DNA from: Burkholderiaceae bacterium
GTDB lineage: Bacteria; Pseudomonadota; Gammaproteobacteria; Burkholderiales; Burkholderiaceae_C
NCBI GenBank assembly: GCA_031285125.1
Contig: JAITWT010000031.1
Span: 1 to 52,685, forward strand
DNA: 52,685 bases
Direction: 5' to 3'
A program made the position numbers and the translations under genes. Positions 6,878-33,287 of this stretch are shown here, one piece after another; within the stretch, counting starts at the first letter, position 1, and every line of letters begins with the position of its first letter. A model generated the notes under the pieces. The model made no database searches. It saw only the letters and a program-made list of their open reading frames with translations, and was not told where the DNA came from.

Positions 6878-7495
6878 ATGAGCACTGAATCTGTTGCTAT
6901 CGATCCGCAACTCCTGAAAGATCGCATCGCCGCCGCGCTGGGTGAGCGTGCCCGCGGCATTTCGCTGGCGCTCGGTGAGATTACCGTGACTGTCGATGCC
7001 GCGAGTTATTTGGCGGCGATGCAAGTCCTGCGCGATGCGCCCGATTGCCGTTTCGAGCAACTCATTGATTTGTGCGGCGTCGATTACTTCAGTTACGGCA
7101 ACGAGGCTTGGCAGGGCCGGCCGCGCTTTTGTGTGGTTTCGCACCTGCTGTCGGTGAGCCTGAACCAGCGTGTGCGCGTGAAGGTGTTTTGTCCTGACGA
7201 CGGTTTGCCGGTTGTGCCCTCGGTGTACGCGCTGTGGAATTCGGCCAACTGGTTTGAGCGCGAAGCCTTCGATTTGTACGGAATCGTATTCGAGGGGCAT
7301 CCCGATCTGCGCCGCATCCTGACGGATTACGGGTTCATCGGACATCCGTTCCGCAAGGATTTTCCGCTGACGGGGCATGTTGAAATGCGCTACGACGCTC
7401 AAATGCAGCGCGTGGTCTATCAGCCGGTGACGATCGAGCAGCGCGAAATCACACCGCGCATCGTCCGCGAAGACAACTATGGCGGATTGCACTGA
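6878..7495 (+). CDS. nuoC: NADH-quinone oxidoreductase subunit C
   Basis: 30-kDa subunit motif [25 protein letters not shown]. Confidence 0.95.
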
Positions 7496-8748
7496 TGCCT
7501 GAAATCAAAAACTACACACTCAACTTCGGCCCTCAGCACCCTGCCGCGCACGGCGTGCTGCGCTTGGTGCTCGAGCTCGATGGTGAAGTGGTCCAACGGG
7601 CCGACCCGCACATTGGCTTGTTGCACCGCGCTACCGAGAAGCTGGCCGAATCCAAGACCTACATTCAGGCCTTGCCTTACATGGACCGGCTCGATTACGT
7701 CTCGATGATGAGCAACGAGCACGCCCTTTGTCTGGCGGTCGAGAAGCTGTTGGGGATCGAAGTGCCGTTGCGCGCGCAGTACATCCGCGTGATGTATTCA
7801 GAAATCACGCGCCTGCTCAATCACCTGATGTGGATCGGCTCCCATGCCAACGACTGTGGCAGCTCGACGATGCTGATCTACGCTTTCCGCGAGCGCGAGG
7901 ATTTGTTCGATATGTACGAGGCGGCTTCAGGCGCGCGCATGCACGCGGCCTATTTCCGTCCGGGCGGCGTGTATCGGGATTTGCCTGAAACGATGCCGCA
8001 CTTCAAGGTCAGCAAAATCCGCAGCGCCAAAGGGATGGCGCGGCTGAACGAAAACCGGCAGGGTTCACTGCTTGACTTCATCGAGGATTTTACCCGGCGT
8101 TTCGTCAAGTACCTTGAGGAATACCACACGCTGCTGACCGATAACCGTATCTGGAAGCAGCGTACTGTGGGTATCGGCGTGATTTCACCCGAGCGCGCGC
8201 TCAATATGGGCTTGACCGGGCCGATGCTGCGAGGTTCAGGCTTTGCCTGGGATCTGCGCAAGAAGCAACCCTACGAGGTTTACAGCCAGGTCGATTTCGA
8301 TATTCCCGTGGGTAAGACGGGAGACAGTTACGACCGTTACCTGGTGCGTATGGAAGAGATGGCGCAGTCCAACCGCATCATCGCGCAATGCGTGCAATGG
8401 CTGCGTGCCCATCCGGGGCCGGTGATCACCGAAAACCACAAGGTCGCGCCACCGCACCGCGAGGCGATGAAGACGCACATGGAAGAACTGATCCACCACT
8501 TCAAGTTCTTCACGGAGGGGTTCCACGTCCCCGAGGGCGAAGCCTATGCCGCCATCGAGCACCCCAAGGGCGAGTACGGCATCTACCTCGTCAGCGATGG
8601 CGCCAACAAGCCGTACCGGCTGAAAATTCGTCCGCCTGGATTCCCTCACTTGGCCGCGCTGGATGAGCTCACGCGGGGTCACATGCTTGCTGACACGGTT
8701 GCCGTGATCGGCAGTTTGGATATCGTTTTCGGAGAGATCGACCGATGA
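7495..8748 (+). CDS. nuoD: NADH-quinone oxidoreductase subunit D
   Basis: 49-kDa subunit motif [16 protein letters not shown]. Its ATG overlaps the nuoC stop by 1 nt. Confidence 0.96.
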
Positions 8749-9317: not shown

Positions 9318-10672
9318 CGACAATGACTCCCGATCAAGTCCTTGCGCAGTTTGAAGCCACTGGCGCGCAGACCTGTTTTCATGGCCGCCACATTCAGCCG
9401 CAGATCTACAAGGATCTGAACGGCAGCAATTGGCGCCTCAAGGATTACGAAGCGCGTGGCGGCTATCAGGCGCTGCGCAAAATTCTTGCCGAGGGCATGA
9501 CGCCCGATCAAGTCATCGCCGAGGTCAAGGCTTCTGGTTTGCGCGGGCGCGGCGGCGCAGGTTTTCCCACGGGGCTGAAGTGGAGCTTCATGCCGCGCCA
9601 GTTCCCGGGGCAGAAGTACCTCGTGTGCAACGCCGATGAAGGGGAGCCGGGGACCTGCAAAGACCGCGATATCTTGCTGTACAACCCGCACCTCGTGATC
9701 GAGGGCATGGTGATCGGTGCTTTCGCCATGGGCGTCAGCGTCGGCTACAACTATATTCACGGCGAAATTTTTCAGACTTACGAGCGTTTCGAGGCGGCCA
9801 TCGAGGAAGCCCGCGCCGCCGGTTATCTGGGCGACAACATCCTGGGCAGCGCTTTCAGTTTTCAGCTGCACGCCGCGCATGGCTTTGGCGCCTATGTCTG
9901 CGGCGAGGAAACCGGGCTGCTCGAATCGCTCGAGGGGAAAAAGGGCCAGCCCCGCTTCAAGCCGCCCTTTCCGGCCAGCTTCGGCCTGTACGGCAAACCC
10001 ACGACCGTCAACAATGTCGAGACCTTGGCGGCGGTGCCGTGGATCATCTGCAATGGCGCGAAAGCCTATCTGGAATGCGGCAAACCCAACAACGGCGGCA
10101 CCAAGATTTTTTCGGTCAGCGGTGATGTGGAGCAGCCCGGCAATTATGAAATTCCGATGGGAACGCCTTTTGCCAAATTGCTTGAGCTGGCCGGCGGCGT
10201 GCGCGGCGGGCGCAAGCTCAAGGCGGTGATTCCGGGCGGATCGTCCTCGCCGGTGCTGCCTGCGCACATCATCATGGAATGCACGATGGACTATGACTCG
10301 ATCGCAAAAGCCGGCTCCATGCTCGGGTCGGGCGCGGTCATCGTGATGGACGAAACGCGTTCGATGGTGCAGGCGCTGCGCCGCTTGTCGTACTTCTATA
10401 TGCATGAATCCTGTGGTCAATGCACCCCGTGCCGTGAGGGGACGGGCTGGATGTGGCGCTTGGTCGATCGCATTCACAACGGACAGGGCCGGCCCAGCGA
10501 TCTCGCGTTGCTCGACAACGTCGGAGAAAACATCATGGGCCGTACGATCTGCGCGCTGGGCGATGCTGCTGCAATGCCGGTGCGCGCAATGATCAAGCAG
10601 TTCCGCCACGAGTTCGAGGCGCTCATTCCCGGGCTTGCCGCTGCCACCGCAGCGACAGGTGAGAAAGTTTGA
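9314..10672 (+). CDS. nuoF: NADH-quinone oxidoreductase subunit F
   Basis: 51-kDa subunit with [16 protein letters not shown] (FMN/NADH site) and [12 protein letters not shown]. Confidence 0.96.
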
Positions 10673-10686
10673 GGCGGGGAACGGAT

Positions 10687-12879
10687 ATGGTTGAAATCGA
10701 ACTGGACGGCCAAAAGGTCGAAGTTACCGAAGGCAGCATGGTGATGCATGCCGCCGAGAAGGCCGGCACCTACATTCCGCACTTCTGTTATCACAAGAAA
10801 CTCAGCATTGCGGCCAGTTGCCGTATGTGCTTGGTCGAAGTCGAGAAGGTCCCCAAGCCGGTGCCCGCCTGCGCGACGCCCGTGACCAAGGGCATGATCG
10901 TGCATACCCGCACTGAAAAAATCACGCGCGCGCAAAAAACGGTGATGGAGTTCCTGCTCATCAATCACCCGCTGGATTGCCCGGTGTGCGATCAGGGCGG
11001 TGAATGCCAGCTGCAGGATTTGGCGGTCGGCTACGGCGTTTCGAGTTCGCGCTACGACGAGGAAAAGCGCGTGGTCGGGCACAAGAATATCGGCCCGCTC
11101 ATCAGCATGGAAGAGATGAGCCGTTGTATCCACTGCACCCGCTGCGTACGCTTTGGCCAGGAAATCGCCGGCGTCATGGAACTGGGCATGATCAACCGCG
11201 GGGAACATGCGGAAATCACCACTGTGGCGGGCGGTACCGTCGATTCCGAACTGTCCGGCAACATGATCGACATCTGCCCCGTGGGCGCACTGACAAGCAA
11301 GCCTTTTCGCTTCAGCGCGCGCACCTGGGAGCTGTCGCGGCGCAAGTCGGTCAGCCCGCACGATTCGACCGGTGCCAATTTGATCGTGCAAGTCAAGGGA
11401 CAACGTGTGATGCGCGTCGTGCCCTTTGAAAATGAAGCGGTCAACGAATGCTGGATCGCTGACCGCGATCGCTTTTCCTATGAGGCGCTGAGCAGCCCCG
11501 ATCGCTTGACTGCGCCGATGCTCAAGCAGGGCGGTCAGTGGCATGAAGTGGATTGGCAAACGGCGCTCGACTATGTGATTCATGGCCTGCAAAGCATCAA
11601 AGCCGAACACGGTGCACAAAGCATCGGCGCGCTGGTCAGCCCGCACAGCACGCTTGAAGAGCTGTATCTGGCGGCACAACTGGTGCGCGGTCTGGGCAGC
11701 GACAACATCGATCACCGGCTGCGGCAGGCTCAATTCATCCGGACGCCGGGCGTGCGCTGGCTGGGGACTTCGATCGCTCGACTGTCGCAGTTGCAGCGTG
11801 TCTTGGTCGTTGGCTCGAACCTGCGCAAAGACCATCCTTTGTTCGCGCAGCGCATTCGCCAAGCCGCGCGCAAGGGTGCGGCGGTGAGCGTGCTGACTTC
11901 GGCGGCGTTGTTGCCGAGCCGTGATGCCTGGGCGATGCCGCTGGCGACGGCACGGGTCGTCGAGCACGACCGCTGGCTCGATGGTTTGGGGCAGATTGCC
12001 GCGGCCATTGCGCGCGTTACCGGCGCCGCGCTGCCGTTTTCCAGCACGAGCGAGCCCGATGACAACGCCCAGGCGATCGCGCAATCACTCCTGTCTGGCG
12101 AGCATAAAGCGATTCTGTTGGGCAATGCCGCTGCGCACCATGCACAGGCCGATGCGTTGCTGGCGCTGGCCAACTGGATCGGCGCGCAAACCGGCGCCAG
12201 CGTGGGTTATTTGACCGAGGCGGCCAATACCGTGGGGGCCCAGTTCGTTGGCGCGCAGCCGCAGGGCGAGGGTTGGGATGCGGGACGGATGCTGGCGGGC
12301 GGCTTGCAAGCGGCGCTGCTGCTCCATTGCGAGCCGCAGCGCGATTCAGCGGCGCAAGCAGGCGCGGCGGCGGCCTTGGCGAAAGCGCAAATGGTCGTCA
12401 CGCTCAGTCCATTCAAGACAAATCTTGAATTCAGCGATGTGCTGCTTCCGATCGCGCCGTTCACCGAAACACCGGGCAGTTTTGTCAACGCCGAAGGCCG
12501 CCTGCAAAGCTTCCACGCGGTGGTTCAGCCCTTGGGGGCGACCCGCCCGGCCTGGAAAGTGCTGCGCGTGCTCGGCACCCTGCTGAATTTGCCCGGCTTT
12601 GCGTTTGAAACCATCGCAGAGGTGTTGGCCCAAGCGCGTGATTCACGCGGCGCGTTGCCCGAAGGCGCCACACACCTGCCCGAGCAATGTCTGAATAATG
12701 CCAGTCAGGCTGATGTTGCCGCCGCTTGGGCAGCGCACACCAGCACCGTGGCTGCCCCTGTGACCGCGCCCATCTACCAACTCGATGGTCTCGTACGGCG
12801 TGCACCGTCCTTGCAACGCACGGCCGATGCGCGCCAGGCGGGCCACCCCGCAGCGCACAAAGAAGGAGCAGCAACGTGA
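10687..12879 (+). CDS. nuoG: NADH-quinone oxidoreductase subunit G
   Basis: 75-kDa subunit with [33 protein letters not shown] and [13 protein letters not shown] at 10687 is preferred over the TTG at 10669. Confidence 0.93.
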
Positions 12880-23850: not shown

Positions 23851-24084
23851 TTACGCTTGACCGCGTGCGCGCAAATCGGCGAGCACGGCGTCGATGCCAT
23901 TCTTGTCAATCAGTCGCAGTGCCGCGCTCGAGACGCGCAGGCGCACCCAGCGATTTTCGCTTTCGACCCAAAAACGGCGGTATTGCAGGTTCGGCATGAA
24001 CCGGCGCTTGGTTTTGTTGTTGGCGTGGGAAACATTGTTGCCCACCATCGGGCCTTTGCCCGTTACTTCGCAGACGCGTGCCAT
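23851..24084 (-). CDS. rpmB: 50S ribosomal protein L28
   Basis: [34 protein letters not shown]... is a canonical L28. Confidence 0.95.
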
Positions 24085-24515
24085 GAGGCGCTCATTCCTT
24101 TAAACAGCCGGCACCCGTGGCAAGCCAATGGCTTGTGAGGAACTCGAGGTTCCCAATGGGGTGGGTTACGGCTTGACCTCGCCAGAAACGGCTGGCGGGA
24201 ACCCGTGGTCGACGTTCATTGCCGACAGAACTCTTGATTATATAGTTTTTTGGGGATTTCCTCATCATCGCCTTATCGTCCCATCATTTCCCCGCCATCG
24301 GCACGATTGGATATGCGCACCGGTTCGACCGTCCGTTGTGCCGGCTGGCGATTTCCCGATTCGACGGCCATGCGCTTGCCCAATGATGCAGGGAAAGGGT
24401 GACCGGCATCGCTGCATTTCGCGCTTCGCCTCCCATTGCGAACCCGGGCGCGCCCGTTCGCGCCGATTCGTATACAGGTTCCCAAGGTCAACGCCAAGTT
24501 GGGCACAATAGTCCA

Positions 24516-25289
24516 ATGAGTACCACCCGCCACGAACTTTTGACGGCTTTTGATCTCCTGCTCAGCCCTGAGCGGTTCCATGATTACGGCCCCAACGGTC
24601 TGCAAGTCGAGGGGCGCGTGCCAGTGCACAAAATCGTCTCGGGCGTGACCGCCTCGCGCGCGCTGATTGAAGCGGCGATTGCCGTCCAGGCCGATGCGAT
24701 CTTCGTGCATCACGGCCTGTTTTGGCGCGGCCAGGATGGGCGCGTGACCGGCTGGATGAAGCAGCGGCTGGCGTTGTTGTTGGCCCACGACCTGAACCTG
24801 TACGCCTACCACCTGCCGCTGGATGCGCACCCCGAGCTGGGCAACAACGCCCAGTTGGGACTGAAGCTGGGCCTGAGCCCCCATCCGGGTGCGGCGGGGC
24901 GCTTCGGCGAGCATGAGTTGGGGTTTATCGGCACGAGCGCGGAGGGCCTGCCCTGGAGCAGCGCCAAAGCGCTGGCGGCGCATGTGCAAAAGCTGACGCA
25001 GCGCCCGGTGACCGTGGTTGAAGGCGCCTCCCGGCCGATTCGCACGGTGGCGTGGTGCAGCGGCGGCGCGCAGGATTGGTTCGAGGCGGCGATTGCCGCT
25101 GGCGCCGACGCTTTTATCACGGGTGAGATCTCGGAACCGCAAACGCATCTGGCGCGTGAGACGGGGGTGGCCTTTCTGGCCTGCGGTCACCATGCAACCG
25201 AGCGCTACGGCGCTCCCGCAGCGGTCGCGCATGTGGCCGCGCAGCTGGGTATCGCGCACGAATTCATCGATATCAACAATCCGGCGTGA
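24516..25289 (+). CDS. Nif3-like dinuclear metal centre protein (YbgI / GTP cyclohydrolase 1 type 2 family)
   Basis: 257 aa with YGPNGLQVEG, DAIFVHHGLFW, YHLPLDAHPELGNN and GHHATERYG. ATG at 24516 lies inside the longer track ORF. Confidence 0.85.
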   Translation: MSTTRHELLTAFDLLLSPERFHDYGPNGLQVEGRVPVHKIVSGVTASRALIEAAIAVQADAIFVHHGLFWRGQDGRVTGWMKQRLALLLAHDLNLYAYHLPLDAHPELGNNAQLGLKLGLSPHPGAAGRFGEHELGFIGTSAEGLPWSSAKALAAHVQKLTQRPVTVVEGASRPIRTVAWCSGGAQDWFEAAIAAGADAFITGEISEPQTHLARETGVAFLACGHHATERYGAPAAVAHVAAQLGIAHEFIDINNPA

Positions 25290-28650: not shown

Positions 28651-28695
28651 CAGTTTGGGTTGAGATGTGTACAACGCCTCTTGCACTCTGCTTAC
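28651..28695 (+). repeat. Direct repeat copy 1 (CAGTTTGGGTTGAGATGTGTACAAC plus weaker tail)
   Basis: 23/25 identical to 38996-39020, with looser similarity continuing about 20 nt. It coincides with the 5' truncation point of the methylase stub. Confidence 0.8.
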
Positions 28696-28998
28696 GTCGC
28701 ACACGACCTGAGCGCCTGGGCGCAAGACTTGGGCTACGACGGCCCGTCCTTCCCCTTCAACCCCGACCGCCGCGCCACCCTGCGCGCCGAACTCGACGCT
28801 TACTACGCCAAACTCTATGGCCTTACCCGCGACGAACTACGCTATATCCTCGACCCCGCCGACATCATGGGCGCCGGCTACCCCAGCGAAACTTTTCGCG
28901 TTCTCAAAGACAAGGAAATGCGAGAATACGGCGAATACCACACTCAAAGGTTGGTGCTGGCGGCGTGGGATAAATTGGAATCAGGAGATTTGGCATGA
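28660..28998 (+). pseudogene. 5'-truncated remnant (C-terminal ~95 aa) of a large DNA methyltransferase / type IIG-like restriction-modification protein
   Basis: There is no ATG, only a TTG inside the repeat. The tail ...RATLRAELDAYYAKLYGLTRDELRYILDPADIMGAGYPSETFRVLKDKEMREYGEYHTQRLVLAAWDKL matches from memory the conserved C-terminal tail of large fused N6-adenine methylase/restriction enzymes. Nothing upstream encodes the catalytic domains. Confidence 0.55.
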
Positions 28999-29432
28999 GT
29001 GCCCTACCATTTACTGACCGTGAATTAAAGCGGGCATGGCGTGAGCTATCAACCATCGCAACGCCGTCTGCTGGAATCTCTCGTGAAAATCCACATCGTT
29101 TACTGCTTTTCTATGCAGTGGAGTGTGGCTTGAAAGCTGCGTGGCTCAAGCAACAAAGACGTACTCTATTCGACAGCGATGACATCGAAATGACAGGACA
29201 CAGCTTGCGCAAGATACTCAAAGACTTGAAAGTTGGTTTCGATCTCTCGTTGCCTCAAAATCTTCGATTAAATTCTGTCAATCACAATAAAACGGAAATT
29301 CCCCGCAATGGTGATTTTGATGATCTGCATCAGGTATGGCGCTATGGTGGAAAATGCCTGACACCTACCGATAAGGATTGCGAAAAAAGATTGCAAAAAG
29401 TGCTGAACTGGATTCATGGAGAATTGAAATGA
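28995..29432 (+). CDS. 145-aa hypothetical protein with a HEPN-like helical pattern
   Basis: AT-rich ORF whose ATG overlaps the upstream stop (ATGA). It shows the spacing E43-x2-LKA48 ... H69-S-L71 ... R116-Y117 reminiscent of classical HEPN domains (aEkaLKA ... H-x-L ... RYp). Confidence 0.6.
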   Translation: MSALPFTDRELKRAWRELSTIATPSAGISRENPHRLLLFYAVECGLKAAWLKQQRRTLFDSDDIEMTGHSLRKILKDLKVGFDLSLPQNLRLNSVNHNKTEIPRNGDFDDLHQVWRYGGKCLTPTDKDCEKRLQKVLNWIHGELK

Positions 29433-32182
29433 ATGAATATCAACCGATGACAGAGCGTTTACTGACATGGCTGGATGTGGAACGCTTGCTCAAAAAGGTG
29501 ACTGAGCTATGGGCGCGACTGCCTAAGGATGTATGGAGCATTGATTGTTTTTCCGAGGGAATGGAAATACGCCTGGCCTCTGATTCAGTCAATCAAGTGG
29601 ATGAGTGGCTGTCAAAAACCTTTTGTGGCGTCTATCAGCGAGAGCCGCGAGCTATTCGCTTGCGTATTGGCTCCACACTGTACCCGATCGAATTGGTAGA
29701 GGAACAAGGCAGGGTGACAGCAACACAAAGCTACCCCTTGTGGCGCGATGTCGCCTATTTGCCTGACATCAGGGAAAATGATCTGCCAAATGATGTACCG
29801 GAATCGCACGAACCTCGTTTGCCACAACGCTTTGTTGAGGGACCAGATCTGGTTTCTTTTCATTCTTTCAAAGGAGGCGTGGGACGTACTACCGCTCTGA
29901 TGACCTATGTTGCGGCTTGCTTGCAAGATGCCAGCAAAGATGTCAAGAAAATTCTGGTGGTGGACGCCGATCTGGAGGCTCCAGGGATCAGTTTTTGGCT
30001 CGATGACAGCAATCGTCCAACTGTGTCTTTTGTGCAGTTGCTTGAGGCACTGCACTACCCGCCTGCGGGGTTGTGTGCAAGCTTGGATTTTTTCGCCGAT
30101 GAGTTGAGAAAAACGTCATTGAGTTTCGGTGGATTACAGCGAGAGCTGTTTGTTTTGCCTGCGGCACTGGATTTGATTGAAATTCAGGATATGCCTGTTA
30201 CTCCCGAACATTTGGCTCGAAATCCGGAAAACCATTGGCAGCTCAGTGATCATTTGCATGCATTAGGAAAGCGTCTAGGTGTTGATGCTGTTTTCATTGA
30301 TTTGCGTGCTGGCCTGAGTGAATTGGCAAGCCCGATTTTATTCGATCCACGTATTGATCATTTTTTTGTTAGCACGGTGGCTCCTCAGTCTATTTTGGGC
30401 ATGAAAGAGGTTTTGTGCCGCCTGTATGCAAATAATCGGCAGTTACCACAAAATTGGCAGGAAGATGCACGTCCTACTGTTATCTTGAGCTTGCTAACCA
30501 AAGAACTGCGCGATTCCGAACACTATGAAAGTGCATTGAGAAAACTGGGGGCGGCATACCCTGACTATTCTGAGGAGGATTCATTGACTCCATCAGTGCA
30601 GTGGCTGGAGGCCGAGTTTATGAGCACACTGATGTCCATTGCCTCAATACGCGAAGCTTTGGACATTTTGCCTCAGTCCAGTCGCTTGTTTTCAAGCGCC
30701 AAGGAGTGGGCAACTTCGCTATATGCTCCATCAACTCAATCATCGTCACAAGTTACCAGCACAAACTCATTCAACGCATCATCGAGACAACAACAAGCAA
30801 AAAAATTGTCGAAGGCTTGTCAAGCAGCCGAATTTGCAGAAGGTGGACAGGAAAGCCCCATCCTTGCCACAGAGCCACTGCTTAACCTTGGCAAACACTA
30901 TTCCAGCAATCTGCCAAGTATATTGATGATAGGTGCAAAAGGTGCAGGCAAGACATTTATTTTCCGTCAAGTAGTTCAATCCAGAACATGGCGAACTTTT
31001 TTAGGTAAACTTGGTTTTGATTCAGAAAATATTGTCAATGCTACTATTTTCCCTGTGTTGTGGTCTGATAATATTGAAGACAAACCCAATGGAGAAATAA
31101 AAATATCTCAAGGTTGTACGCTTGAATCAATCGAAGGCAACAAGGACAAATTGCTGAGCAAAACTGTTTTGCGCAATAAAATTAATTCGCAACTCAAAAG
31201 CAGATCAAAAAACTGGGATGACTTCTGGGATAAATTGATTACCGCCCAATTGGGCGTAGCCACTGGTGGATTAAAGGCGGTTAATAAACTTTTGATAAAA
31301 AAATCTGCTCGCATGATTTTTGTGTTTGACGGCATTGAGGATGCTTTCAAAGATGCTGCTGATTTGCTATCTGCCGAGGCTATTGACGCTTTGTTGAGGC
31401 TGCCCAATCGTGTGAGCGAACTACAAAATCGTCATCTTGGTGTCATAGTTTTTGTGCGGGCGGACTATGTACAAACAGTAATTCGGCAAAATTTGGGACA
31501 ATGGTTACAGCGATTCGAACCATTCAGATTGCAATGGAATGCAGAAAGTTTCTTGAGACTGGCATATATGTTGAGCAGTCACGCAAATGTCATTCCATCT
31601 GGAAAACCCGCCGAATCTCTGCGTCTGGATGAATTAAAATCCGAGCTTGAGCAATTGTGGGGGAAAAAACTGGGTCGCGAACAATCCAAAGAAGCGCACT
31701 CTGCTCGTTGGGTATATACGGCCTTGTGTGACCTCAGGGGGAATGTGCAGGCTCGTGACTTGGTGCGTTTCTTGAAAATTGCCGCTGATGAAGAGTCCAA
31801 GAAAACAGTGCAGACATGGACAGATCGTTTGTTGACACCCGAATCGATGCGCAAAGCCATTCCAGCTTGTAGCACAGGGAAAGTTGAGGAAGCCAAAGCT
31901 GAAATTGCGCCACTCAAAAGATGGGTTGAACTAATGAATGAAAAAAATATTCACAGCCTCAAAGTACCATTTAGTGCTCAGCAGGCTGGTTTGGATGCGA
32001 CTTTGCTAAATGCCTTGCAAGAGCTAGGTGTAATCTATGAAGATAAGGATGGAAAATTGGGAGAAGAGCGCCTGTTCTTGCCCGAAATTTATCGAACTGG
32101 CTTGGACTTTGAGACTTCTGCGGCTGGACGACCGCGTATGCAAGCCTTGCTGAAGAAAAATATCGGAGTCATACCGCTGTAA
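29429..32182 (+). CDS. 917-aa dual P-loop NTPase: unknown N-domain + ParA/MinD-like ATPase with KGGVGR-type Walker A + Ser/Gln linker + second AAA/STAND-like P-loop NTPase + C-terminal helical (wHTH-like?) region
   Basis: ATG at 29429 overlaps the stop of the 145-aa ORF (ATGA). The first module has SFKGGVGRTT (nt 29870-29893), VVDADLEAPG and AVFIDLRAG. The second has GAKGAGKT (nt 30932-30955), the Walker B-like MIFVFDGIED (from nt 31313) and VIVFVRAD. The ORF-track start at 29378 is an upstream extension. Confidence 0.7.
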   Translation: MNEYQPMTERLLTWLDVERLLKKVTELWARLPKDVWSIDCFSEGMEIRLASDSVNQVDEWLSKTFCGVYQREPRAIRLRIGSTLYPIELVEEQGRVTATQSYPLWRDVAYLPDIRENDLPNDVPESHEPRLPQRFVEGPDLVSFHSFKGGVGRTTALMTYVAACLQDASKDVKKILVVDADLEAPGISFWLDDSNRPTVSFVQLLEALHYPPAGLCASLDFFADELRKTSLSFGGLQRELFVLPAALDLIEIQDMPVTPEHLARNPENHWQLSDHLHALGKRLGVDAVFIDLRAGLSELASPILFDPRIDHFFVSTVAPQSILGMKEVLCRLYANNRQLPQNWQEDARPTVILSLLTKELRDSEHYESALRKLGAAYPDYSEEDSLTPSVQWLEAEFMSTLMSIASIREALDILPQSSRLFSSAKEWATSLYAPSTQSSSQVTSTNSFNASSRQQQAKKLSKACQAAEFAEGGQESPILATEPLLNLGKHYSSNLPSILMIGAKGAGKTFIFRQVVQSRTWRTFLGKLGFDSENIVNATIFPVLWSDNIEDKPNGEIKISQGCTLESIEGNKDKLLSKTVLRNKINSQLKSRSKNWDDFWDKLITAQLGVATGGLKAVNKLLIKKSARMIFVFDGIEDAFKDAADLLSAEAIDALLRLPNRVSELQNRHLGVIVFVRADYVQTVIRQNLGQWLQRFEPFRLQWNAESFLRLAYMLSSHANVIPSGKPAESLRLDELKSELEQLWGKKLGREQSKEAHSARWVYTALCDLRGNVQARDLVRFLKIAADEESKKTVQTWTDRLLTPESMRKAIPACSTGKVEEAKAEIAPLKRWVELMNEKNIHSLKVPFSAQQAGLDATLLNALQELGVIYEDKDGKLGEERLFLPEIYRTGLDFETSAAGRPRMQALLKKNIGVIPL

Positions 32183-32210
32183 GCATTGAGACTGCTTCAG
32201 TTCCAACCGC

Positions 32211-32978
32211 ATGAACCCCCTCCAGCGCACCCTGATCGAAAAAGCCGGCCACGACAACGGCTTCGAGCACGTGCTGCCATCCACCGAAACCGTCACCTTG
32301 GCATCCGCCCGCCATCGCACCCGCGCCGAGGTTTCCCTATCCCCATCGAATGAATTCGACACCCGTTTCCAATCGGCATCCCCCGCGCTGTTATCAGAAT
32401 TACGGCGCAGCTTCGGCGACGGCATAAAGAACGCCGCCTCATTCCACGCCGCCACGCTGGCCGACCTGTCTCAACTGCTGCGCCGCGCTGCCCGTTTGTC
32501 GCAGGCGCTGCCCAATCAGGCAGAACGCGACTACCAAACCGCCGTGCAACAAGCGCTGGCCCAGTTGCCGCCCGGCAGCCAGGGGACCGAAATCGAACGC
32601 ATGGCGCGCCAGCGCATCGGCCAGGACCGCTACCGCGCCGCCATGCTCGACTACTGGAGCGGCGTCTGCGCCGTCACCGGCGTGGCGATTCCCGAAGTGC
32701 TACGCGCCAGCCATGCCAAGCCGTGGGCCGAATGCGAGAGCGATGCCGAACGGCTGGACGCCTTCAACGGCTTTTTGCTGGTGGCCAATCTCGATACCCT
32801 GTTCGACCGTTTTCCCATCAGCTTTGACGGTGTCTGGCATCTGCTGATCAGCGACTGCCTATCCCCAAACGATCGGCAGGGACTTGAAATTCATCCAGAA
32901 ATGAAACTGCGCTGGCTGACCCGCGAGCACCAACATTACCTACAGTGGCACCGCGAGCATTTCCTGCTCGGCGTTTGA
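32211..32978 (+). CDS. HNH endonuclease (HNH_2-type, restriction-endonuclease-like)
   Basis: 255 aa and GC-rich. Contains RIGQDRYRAAMLDYWSGVCAVTGVAIPEVLRASHAKPW...NGFLLVANLDTLFDRFPISF, which fits the HNH_2 pattern (GQ..FR...L..Y...CA.TG......L.A.HI.P......NG..L...LH.LFD.G.I). Confidence 0.75.
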   Translation: MNPLQRTLIEKAGHDNGFEHVLPSTETVTLASARHRTRAEVSLSPSNEFDTRFQSASPALLSELRRSFGDGIKNAASFHAATLADLSQLLRRAARLSQALPNQAERDYQTAVQQALAQLPPGSQGTEIERMARQRIGQDRYRAAMLDYWSGVCAVTGVAIPEVLRASHAKPWAECESDAERLDAFNGFLLVANLDTLFDRFPISFDGVWHLLISDCLSPNDRQGLEIHPEMKLRWLTREHQHYLQWHREHFLLGV

Positions 32979-33287
32979 TCGAAGGAACGAACCCATATGG
33001 CCAAGGCCGAGGCAAGGGTGGAAGAAGAATTAGTTCTGCTGTTATTCGCGGTGAACCAGGTACCAGGGCTACCATCGGTCAGAGACGTGTATTCGGGACA
33101 GGAACTGACTGTATGCAGGTTGACCTGCTGAGCGGGATTGACTAGCGTGGAGCACACAGGCACGCAGTGATTGTGACCGCGACTGCGTGTGATTGCGACT
33201 GTGCCGGCCTGGGCCAACATCGACTTATCGACGGGTGCCGGGATCGACGCGTCCCCGGGCAGCGGGCCAAGCCCGTGCGAACGGCCC

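Follow-up and report, generated by a model that had tools for sequence, protein, structure and literature searches.

A window of 52,685 nt from a Burkholderiaceae bacterium (GCA_031285125.1, contig JAITWT010000031.1, forward strand, positions 1-52,685; the window is the whole stretch of DNA that was analysed) carries, between mltA and galU, a foreign pair of adjoining genes, here called A and B. We consider this pair to be probably a self-contained and horizontally mobile two-gene module directed against phages or other mobile genetic elements. Gene A encodes a small protein with a tentative HEPN-like fold, and gene B a large double nucleoside triphosphatase (NTPase) in which a ParA/MinD-fold domain with an altered P-loop is followed by a second, STAND/ORC-like NTPase. 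The two genes are strictly paired, occur nested in operons related to ARMADA and DISARM as well as on mobile elements, and are homologous to components of the predicted defence candidate PDC-M28. We infer the defence function from this genomic context. If the pair does defend against phage, it would open a first way into the function of a large and widespread protein family, which goes at NCBI under a mere motif name ("KGGVGR-motif variant AAA ATPase") and figures in PADLOC only as candidate PDC-M28.

A foreign, coupled gene pair and its predicted folds

In 400-nt windows the G+C content (GC) falls from 0.64-0.70 to 0.38-0.51 at about 28.9-32.2 kb and recovers thereafter. Over A and B together, GC drops from about 0.65 to 0.46 and GC at third codon positions (GC3) from 0.77 to 0.42; the values for each gene and its neighbours are given in Table 1. 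A first-pass annotation of this DNA had described a foreign two-gene cassette, with a drop in GC at 28995, a recovery near 32190 and a loss of the third-position G/C bias of the other genes. The sliding-window and per-gene values bear out the drop and the lost bias, and composition and gene structure together confirm the cassette. Since the methylase stub and the HNH gene on either side are both host-like, the compositional anomaly is limited exactly to A and B.

The insert as a whole spans 28.6-33.3 kb and is bounded by mltA and galU. As the first-pass annotation had also noted, the open reading frame (ORF) annotation reveals no integrase or transposase within it, and direct repeats, inverted repeats or att-like sites bordering it were represented by chance-level matches only. 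The roughly 310 nt between the HNH gene and the end of galU (32979-33287) are non-coding and have a GC of about 0.55, below that of the surroundings; the right-hand border of the foreign insert falls within this interval.

Both of the 4-nt ATGA overlaps that had been reported, at 28995-28998 and 29429-29432, are present. At the first (TGGCATGAGTGC at 28995) the methylase remnant ends as A begins, and the second (TGAAATGAATGA at 29429) links A to B. In a mechanical ORF list the B frame begins further upstream, at a TTG (29378). The true start of B is nevertheless the ATG at 29429, whose methionine (M1) is shared by all of 50 homologues. The coupling is not peculiar to the window. In every locus that covers that side of B (11 independent contexts and the window), A lies directly 5' of it, and in nearly all of these loci the two genes share a 4-nt start/stop overlap. 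The pairing is kept even at 33-38% identity on a Ralstonia pseudosolanacearum megaplasmid, where the pair is split by an IS5 element.

The search for homologues of protein B returned over 1,400 proteins. Those listed, 120 in number, share 65-72% identity with it and come from many genera of Beta- and Gammaproteobacteria. Its first NTPase domain (residues 139-331) matches NCBIfam NF047398, the KGGVGR-motif family, at 153 bits against a cutoff of 90, and in Pfam it reaches only sub-threshold matches to AAA_31, VirC1 and CbiA. In Foldseek searches with the AlphaFold2 model of B (mean pLDDT 71.6), this predicted fold matches ParA 3ea0 (E=2e-5, TM 0.68) as well as Soj, MinD, BcsQ and FlhG. The Walker A motif of the domain is a variant, KGGVGRT: it retains an invariant signature lysine, K148, but has an invariant arginine, R153, in place of the canonical P-loop lysine. 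This replacement is the defining trait of NF047398.

The fold of this domain, together with automatic annotations that name homologues "ParA family", "MinD-like" or "BcsQ", raises the question of whether the pair serves housekeeping or element maintenance, that is, partition, positioning or a BcsQ/BY-kinase-like control of polysaccharide synthesis. We regard such a role as highly improbable. Models of partition proteins score far below their cutoffs on B (ParA_partition 13.8 bits against 180, VirC1 22.5 against 313), so that the membership of a partition ParA family considered in the first-pass annotation does not apply, and the P-loop lysine that such ATPases carry is replaced. No ParB gene adjoins A and B in 12 loci, and in none of the sampled loci are ParB, centromere, cellulose or capsule genes found near the pair. 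The patchy, horizontally transferred distribution with anomalous GC, and the fusion of the domain to a STAND/ORC-like NTPase, also speak against it.

That second NTPase (residues 497-828) matches NCBIfam NF047389 ("P-loop ATPase, Sll1717 family") at 65.9 bits, below the cutoff of 75. Its Pfam matches, all below the gathering threshold, are to AAA_16 (E=0.001), nSTAND_NTPase5 (E=0.005) and NACHT (E=0.084), and Foldseek relates the predicted fold to ORC/Cdc6, to the N-terminus of BrxC (9zll) and to NLRP3. The domain has a classical Walker A motif and an invariant Walker B region (Table 1), and we take the latter, FVFDGIEDAF, to resemble the NACHT/STAND hhhhDGxDE pattern. NCBIfam and Foldseek therefore agree with the first-pass description of B as a ParA/MinD-type ATPase fused to a second P-loop NTPase. 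According to the model, a 92-residue domain would precede the ParA-like module, and the C-terminus would consist of a helical region and a small alpha/beta end that lacks repeats. Sequence searches of the PDB with B and with a profile of the A family returned nothing meaningful.

Protein A of the window has no match in Pfam (E<=0.1), NCBIfam, PADLOC or PHROG. Its AlphaFold2 model (pLDDT 93) predicts a helical bundle with a beta-hairpin inserted at residues 89-107. The best Foldseek matches are the HEPN proteins 1ufb, 1wol and 4nqf, and the HEPN-MNT structures 8xeh, 6m6u and 8yuf are among the matches too, all of them weak (E>=0.25, TM 0.47-0.54). Two of 64 diverse relatives of A match the Pfam HEPN family PF05168, with E of about 0.003. 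There are 476 close homologues of A, and an exhaustive profile search yields 558 clusters at 50% identity, nearly all of them stand-alone proteins of about 140 residues. Across the 64 diverse members, only Y40, E43, K47, H69, R116, Y117 and G118 are invariant.

The stretch R104-x7-H112 was considered as a stretched HEPN motif and rejected, as it is conserved in the close subfamily only and is lost across the 64 members; A is therefore devoid of a conserved Rx4-6H motif. Consequently, the HEPN-like partner of the first-pass annotation stands as a predicted fold but not as regards the canonical motif. "HEPN-like" is acceptable as a statement about the modelled fold and does not imply RNase activity.

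Nesting in ARMADA-type-I-like operons and spread of the pair

The genes that flank the pair in the window become intelligible by comparison with three other loci: a metagenomic contig (L014/15), Halothiobacillus (L016/17) and the Acidithiobacillus caldus SM-1 megaplasmid (L012). In the first two, the genes run in the order YprA-like DEAD/Helicase_C/MZB(DUF1998) helicase, SNF2 helicase, methylase, A (through an ATGA overlap), B and HNH, the methylase being an Eco57I/MmeI/PglX-like protein of 1,335-1,349 residues. ARMADA Type I systems have been described with a YprA-like DUF1998 helicase, a BrxHII/RapA-like SNF2 protein and a PglX-like methylase in this order (Bell et al. 2025, 10.1101/2025.09.15.676423), and the published gene order of ARMADA Type I/class 1 DISARM is matched in both the metagenomic contig and Halothiobacillus. 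The HNH gene, like A and B, lies outside the published ARMADA definition (10.1101/2025.09.15.676423). Against NCBIfam and PADLOC models the operon genes score as DrmD-like, DrmMI-like and DruE-like, all below threshold, as expected because the operon is a relative of DISARM. Over the last 886-921 residues of the YprA-like helicases, Pfam showed no Vsr nuclease at E<=0.01; the published assignment of this nuclease is structure-based.

The methylase stub of the window is 75-77% identical to the C-termini of the intact methylases (1,317-1,349 residues) of A. caldus and Halothiobacillus, and 66% identical to that of the metagenomic contig. Similarly, the window HNH protein aligns along its entire length, at 55-63% identity, with the HNH proteins that follow the methylase, or A and B, in the same three loci. 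Judged by these identities, the stub and the HNH gene are the two ends of one ARMADA-type-I/DISARM-like operon with A and B nested between them. The window holds the 3' wreck of an ARMADA-I-like operon, of which the last 109 methylase codons and the HNH gene remain. The first-pass annotation had listed both flanking genes; they are present as described, but they are the remains of a single operon and not an incidental neighbourhood. The window HNH gene is intact although the methylase of its cognate operon is cut to 109 codons, and such an orphan nuclease would not be expected; perhaps it is inactive on its own, or its activity is not gated by methylation.

The operon also occurs without the pair. 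On the A. caldus megaplasmid the orthologous operon runs SNF2, [Phd/VapC], methylase and HNH, with A and B absent, which makes the pair a facultative insert at the methylase/HNH junction. In addition, A and B are less GC-rich than the surrounding operon in the metagenomic contig, in Halothiobacillus and in the window, and thus behave as a separately acquired insert.

Both points bear on an alternative in which A and B serve ARMADA type I as accessory or regulatory subunits that load or control the methylase, the HNH protein or the helicases, the window copy being a leftover. Its attraction lies in the tightness of the arrangement: in intact operons A starts on the methylase stop codon and HNH follows B directly, methylase-tail relics stand before A even in prophage, integrative and conjugative element (ICE) and Tn7 cargo, and the second NTPase of B resembles BrxC, the ORC-like core ATPase of BREX. 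However, most sampled copies of A and B are found without any ARMADA gene, and the published ARMADA description includes no such component (10.1101/2025.09.15.676423). With the A. caldus operon and the deviating composition at three loci added, we hold an accessory role to be rather unlikely.

The relics in question derive from about 40 nt at the methylase 3' end (window 28955-28998), which encode ...AWDxLxSGxLx* and carry an AGGAG ribosome-binding site together with the ATGA overlap. Upstream of a stand-alone A, such a relic is found in the Pseudomonas aeruginosa prophage and in the ICE of Halomonas; the one in the Tn7-like cargo of Ralstonia is degenerate. Because these tail relics travel with A and B, the methylase 3' end is the probable ancestral address of the module. 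This suggests that the module has spread outward from there, or that it is exchanged there by recombination. A specific insertion slot is pinpointed, from the methylase stop codon to the HNH gene. If the pair does defend against phage, guilt by embedding would extend to the newly described ARMADA systems.

Table 1. Coordinates and base composition of the pair, its domains and motifs, and the flanking genes (window positions unless a locus is named).
Feature	Position	Strand	GC	GC3	Detail
Gene A	28995-29432	+	0.443	0.411	145 residues; putative divergent HEPN-fold protein
Gene B	29429-32182	+	0.458	0.432	917 residues; double NTPase, translationally coupled to A via ATGA
ParA/MinD-fold domain, KGGVGR variant	29843-30421	+			B residues 139-331
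Variant Walker A KGGVGRT	29870-29890	+			From translation; invariance across 50 homologues
Second NTPase, STAND/ORC-Cdc6-like AAA+, Sll1717 family (sub-cutoff match)	30917-31912	+			B residues 497-828
Classical Walker A GAKGAGKT	30932-30955	+			K508 invariant
Walker B region FVFDGIEDAF	31319-31348	+			D634, E637, D638 invariant
Methylase remnant (stub), PglX/DrmMI-like N6-adenine	28669-28995	+	0.58	0.69	Last 109 codons of a protein of ~1,320 residues; host-like composition
HNH_2 endonuclease	32211-32978	+	0.625	0.75	255 residues; Pfam PF13391 E=3e-10; PADLOC HNH and type II restriction endonuclease models; host-like composition
mltA, galU, prlC, pdxA-like neighbours			about 0.63-0.70	0.77-0.83	
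Methylase-tail relics	L002, L018, L019, each ~9525-9570				Upstream of stand-alone A

Outside this operon family, the pair is found in a range of mobile or defence-associated settings. In P. aeruginosa it stands at the end of a prophage, after the lysis genes and near an integrase. In Aeromonas caviae it lies 3' of hsdR-M-S and a HATPase_c_3 gene in a Tn7-like/resolvase island, in Ralstonia it is Tn7-like cargo adjoining RES and T5orf172 genes, and in Halomonas it resides within an ICE and adjoins AbiEi. At one further locus the neighbours are Phd, DUF6036 and Fic genes. Tight insertions are seen between ileS and metH, after an FBPase gene and after gyrB. The GC of the cassette is below that of its locus or host in all 11 loci measured. 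The defence-type neighbourhood that the first-pass annotation had proposed is supported by the operon embedding and by the restriction-modification, prophage, ICE and Tn7-like contexts.

The carriage on prophage, ICE and Tn7-like elements, and the vicinity of the toxin-antitoxin genes Phd/Fic, AbiEi and CbeA, would also suit an addiction module in which A is the toxin and B an ATPase antitoxin, acting through nucleotide-dependent binding or modification (e.g., phosphorylation) and serving mainly to stabilise the islands or elements that carry it, and not to block phage. The tight translational coupling and the fixed A-B pairing are in keeping with this, and the invariant Tyr117 that adjoins the invariant Arg116 in A suits regulation by modification, which is how MntA-HepT is regulated. 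The same logic has been proposed for dyads of a HEPN protein (MAE_18760 family) and a ParA/Soj-like ATPase, predicted to be a toxin-antitoxin pair (Anantharaman et al. 2013, PMC3710099). In those dyads, however, the gene order is reversed, the HEPN gene lying upstream here. Moreover, an antitoxin of 917 residues with two NTPases would be out of proportion for simple addiction, no RNase motif can be demonstrated in A, and copies persist at chromosomal sites where there is no mobile element to stabilise. We therefore rate an addiction module as a minority possibility, well behind a defence function; toxin-antitoxin and abortive-infection roles are compatible and not mutually exclusive.

Further cassettes are seen at the loci compared above. 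On the A. caldus megaplasmid a Phd/YefM-VapC pair lies between the SNF2 gene and the methylase gene (L012 4749-5383), which makes it a second, different cassette embedded in the operon family. On the metagenomic contig a complete Wadjet system (DUF3375/JetA, JetB/MksE, JetC, JetD; L014 13902-20683) stands directly 3' of the operon that carries A and B, and this region is a multi-system defence island. The HATPase_c_3 gene of Aeromonas caviae (L010 7600-9531) encodes a GHKL/MORC-like protein of 643 residues with a weak PADLOC match to type II restriction endonucleases; it follows hsdR-M-S, lies directly 5' of A and B, and may be another defence gene embedded in a restriction-modification locus.

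On the R. pseudosolanacearum megaplasmid (L013) an IS5-family transposase gene (6932-7888) stands between the A-like and B-like genes, and a second IS4/5 transposase gene lies just 3' (10759-11583); this copy is probably inactivated. The ORF between the two genes was considered as a third gene of the system and rejected, since it is the IS5 transposase.

Proposed mechanism and relation to known systems

The roles of the two proteins and the outcome of their action are those that we infer as follows. B would be an NTP-driven sensor or switch, whose STAND/ORC-like AAA+ module, with intact Walker A and Walker B motifs, would bind ATP and an infection cue and then oligomerise. The ParA/MinD-fold module, with its K-to-R P-loop, would probably bind nucleotide and hydrolyse it poorly; it may serve as a dimerisation or DNA-binding device and could couple the switch of B to A. 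A would be the HEPN-fold partner, supplied in a fixed ratio through translational coupling, and could act either as the effector, in the form of a toxin that is RNase-like or binds nucleotides, or as a regulated partner. The cell would in consequence stop growing or undergo abortive infection.

A more far-reaching proposal is that the pair represents a new kind of immune module, in which a ParA-fold pseudo-ATPase is the output of a STAND/ORC-like sensor and acts by binding DNA or the division machinery in a nucleotide-dependent manner, or by a BY-kinase-like modification of Tyr117 that controls A. The pair would then be the first characterised member of the PDC-M28/KGGVGR family, and the ARMADA methylase/HNH junction a site of cassette exchange. 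We put this forward as speculative and, taken as a whole, on the unlikely side. The combination of a K-to-R ParA fold, a STAND/ORC-like NTPase and a HEPN fold devoid of Rx4-6H fits no characterised defence mechanism.

Several observations weigh against a defence module. No recognisable nuclease or other effector domain is found in B, and a conserved Rx4-6H motif was not found among the 64 members of the A family, whose HEPN assignment depends on weak signals from modelled folds and hidden Markov models. The genomic contexts come from exact-protein look-ups and comprise 12 loci with no background rate for comparison, and several copies sit amid housekeeping genes with no defence neighbours. In the literature searched, nothing was found on this family, be it in connection with KGGVGR, Sll1717, PDC-M28 or anti-phage pairs of HEPN and ParA-like proteins. 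The nearest MltA proteins are 62-72% identical, and their mltA neighbourhoods contain neither galU nor the cassette; since synteny is lost at this distance, a presence/absence comparison of the mltA-galU interval is uninformative. Finally, the window sequence 5' of A yielded no sigma-70-like promoter, and this copy may or may not be expressed.

The last of these points, together with the evident decay of the operon to 109 methylase codons, is also what would be expected if the window copy were an inert relic of a decayed island with no current function. We find this hard to reconcile with the sequence and give it little credence. Neither the A nor the B ORF is truncated, none of the residues shared by all of 47 homologues of A and 50 of B has been lost, both P-loops included, and the HNH gene is intact too. 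The GC of A and B is unameliorated, which suggests a recent arrival and not a long decay.

We therefore return to the defence module, for which the comparison with known systems is informative. What lies nested in an Hma, BREX, DISARM or type I restriction-modification operon is often a defence system, and 145 predicted candidates (PDCs) found on this principle were released in PADLOC-DB v2 (Payne et al. 2024, 10.1101/2024.01.29.577857). One of these is PDC-M28, a PADLOC candidate with three families (cassette CAS_00115; 10.1101/2024.01.29.577857), which was likewise discovered by its nesting in BREX, DISARM or type I restriction-modification operons. Residues 1-450 of B match PDC-M28B, the model for a ParA-like ATPase (E=1.9e-16, 58 bits), the match being local and covering positions 127-184 of the 438 in the profile, about 60 residues; the B homologue of the R. 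pseudosolanacearum megaplasmid spans positions 123-372 of the same profile. Residues 451-917 of B match PDC-M28C, the model for a second P-loop ATPase (E=3.3e-15 over three stretches), and the B homologues of R. pseudosolanacearum, Halothiobacillus and A. caviae match both PDC-M28B and PDC-M28C. With PDC-M28A the window A has no match even at E<=1, and nine of the 64 diverse A-family members do match, the best at E=2e-4.

Because the two halves of B match PDC-M28B and PDC-M28C and some relatives of A match PDC-M28A, the pair is a divergent, gene-fused relative of PDC-M28. The difference lies in the gene organisation: PDC-M28 comprises three separate genes A, B and C, whereas here B and C are fused in a single 917-residue ORF, in all homologues sampled. 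The first-pass annotation had been unable to match the pairing to any named system. The pairing is not wholly without a match, as the candidate PDC-M28 corresponds to it and a comparable dyad was predicted in 2013; PDC-M28 is itself a prediction. Papers on ARMADA, on surveys of STAND proteins and on modularity networks leave the family unmentioned.

The dyad predicted in 2013 (PMC3710099) is also a conflict-linked two-gene system composed of a small HEPN-type protein and a ParA/Soj-fold NTPase. In contrast to the present pair, its ATPase gene lies upstream, its ATPase has no counterpart of the extra STAND/ORC-like NTPase of B, and the MAE_18760 HEPN proteins, compared here by their description, have the Rx4-6H motif that A lacks (PMC3710099, Table 1). 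MNT-HEPN (MntA-HepT) likewise combines a small HEPN-fold protein with a partner that uses nucleotides, but this partner is a nucleotidyltransferase and not a P-loop NTPase, and A differs by the absence of Rx4-6H.

With Avs, bNACHT and BrxC, the second NTPase of B shares the classical Walker A motif, a DGxED-type Walker B motif and the weak NACHT, nSTAND5 and AAA_16 matches together with the fold matches. By analogy, the sensor/switch logic of STAND/NLR-type NTPases is plausible for B. Unlike the anti-phage NTPases of this type, B lacks a C-terminal repeat sensor (TPR, LRR, WD40), and no nuclease, protease or TIR effector is fused to it; in B, the ParA-like pseudo-ATPase occupies the N-terminal position that the effector takes in STAND proteins.

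Inactive MinD/ParA-like domains fused to AP-ATPase (STAND) proteins have been described in NTP-dependent conflict systems (Kaur et al. 2020, PMC7159879). By their description these systems resemble B, in that a STAND NTPase is fused to a MinD/ParA fold whose catalysis is predicted to be impaired. They belong, however, to vWA-MoxR/VMAP or peptide-processing systems of actinobacteria and multicellular bacteria, for which no HEPN partner and no embedding in restriction-modification loci is described (PMC7159879).

Distribution and minor observations

None of 5,426 complete Escherichia coli genomes carries the module, which may explain why screens centred on E. coli have missed it. Among plasmids, full-length matches are limited to the distant Ralstonia megaplasmid copies. 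Searches of 50,697 phage records revealed no close copies; the sole match is a 206-residue P-loop protein of Microcystis phage Mic1. This protein (Mic1_05, L022 4016-4636) is annotated as a "ParA family protein" and is 25% identical to B over residues 482-706, that is, to the second, Sll1717/STAND-like P-loop domain and not to the ParA-like one. Its gene is a solitary one, flanked by structural and replication genes, and the protein could be either unrelated to B or a phage-borne mimic.

Elsewhere in the window, a second and milder dip in GC (0.57 against about 0.68) is found at 24000-24600, 5' of the ORF at 24399-25289.

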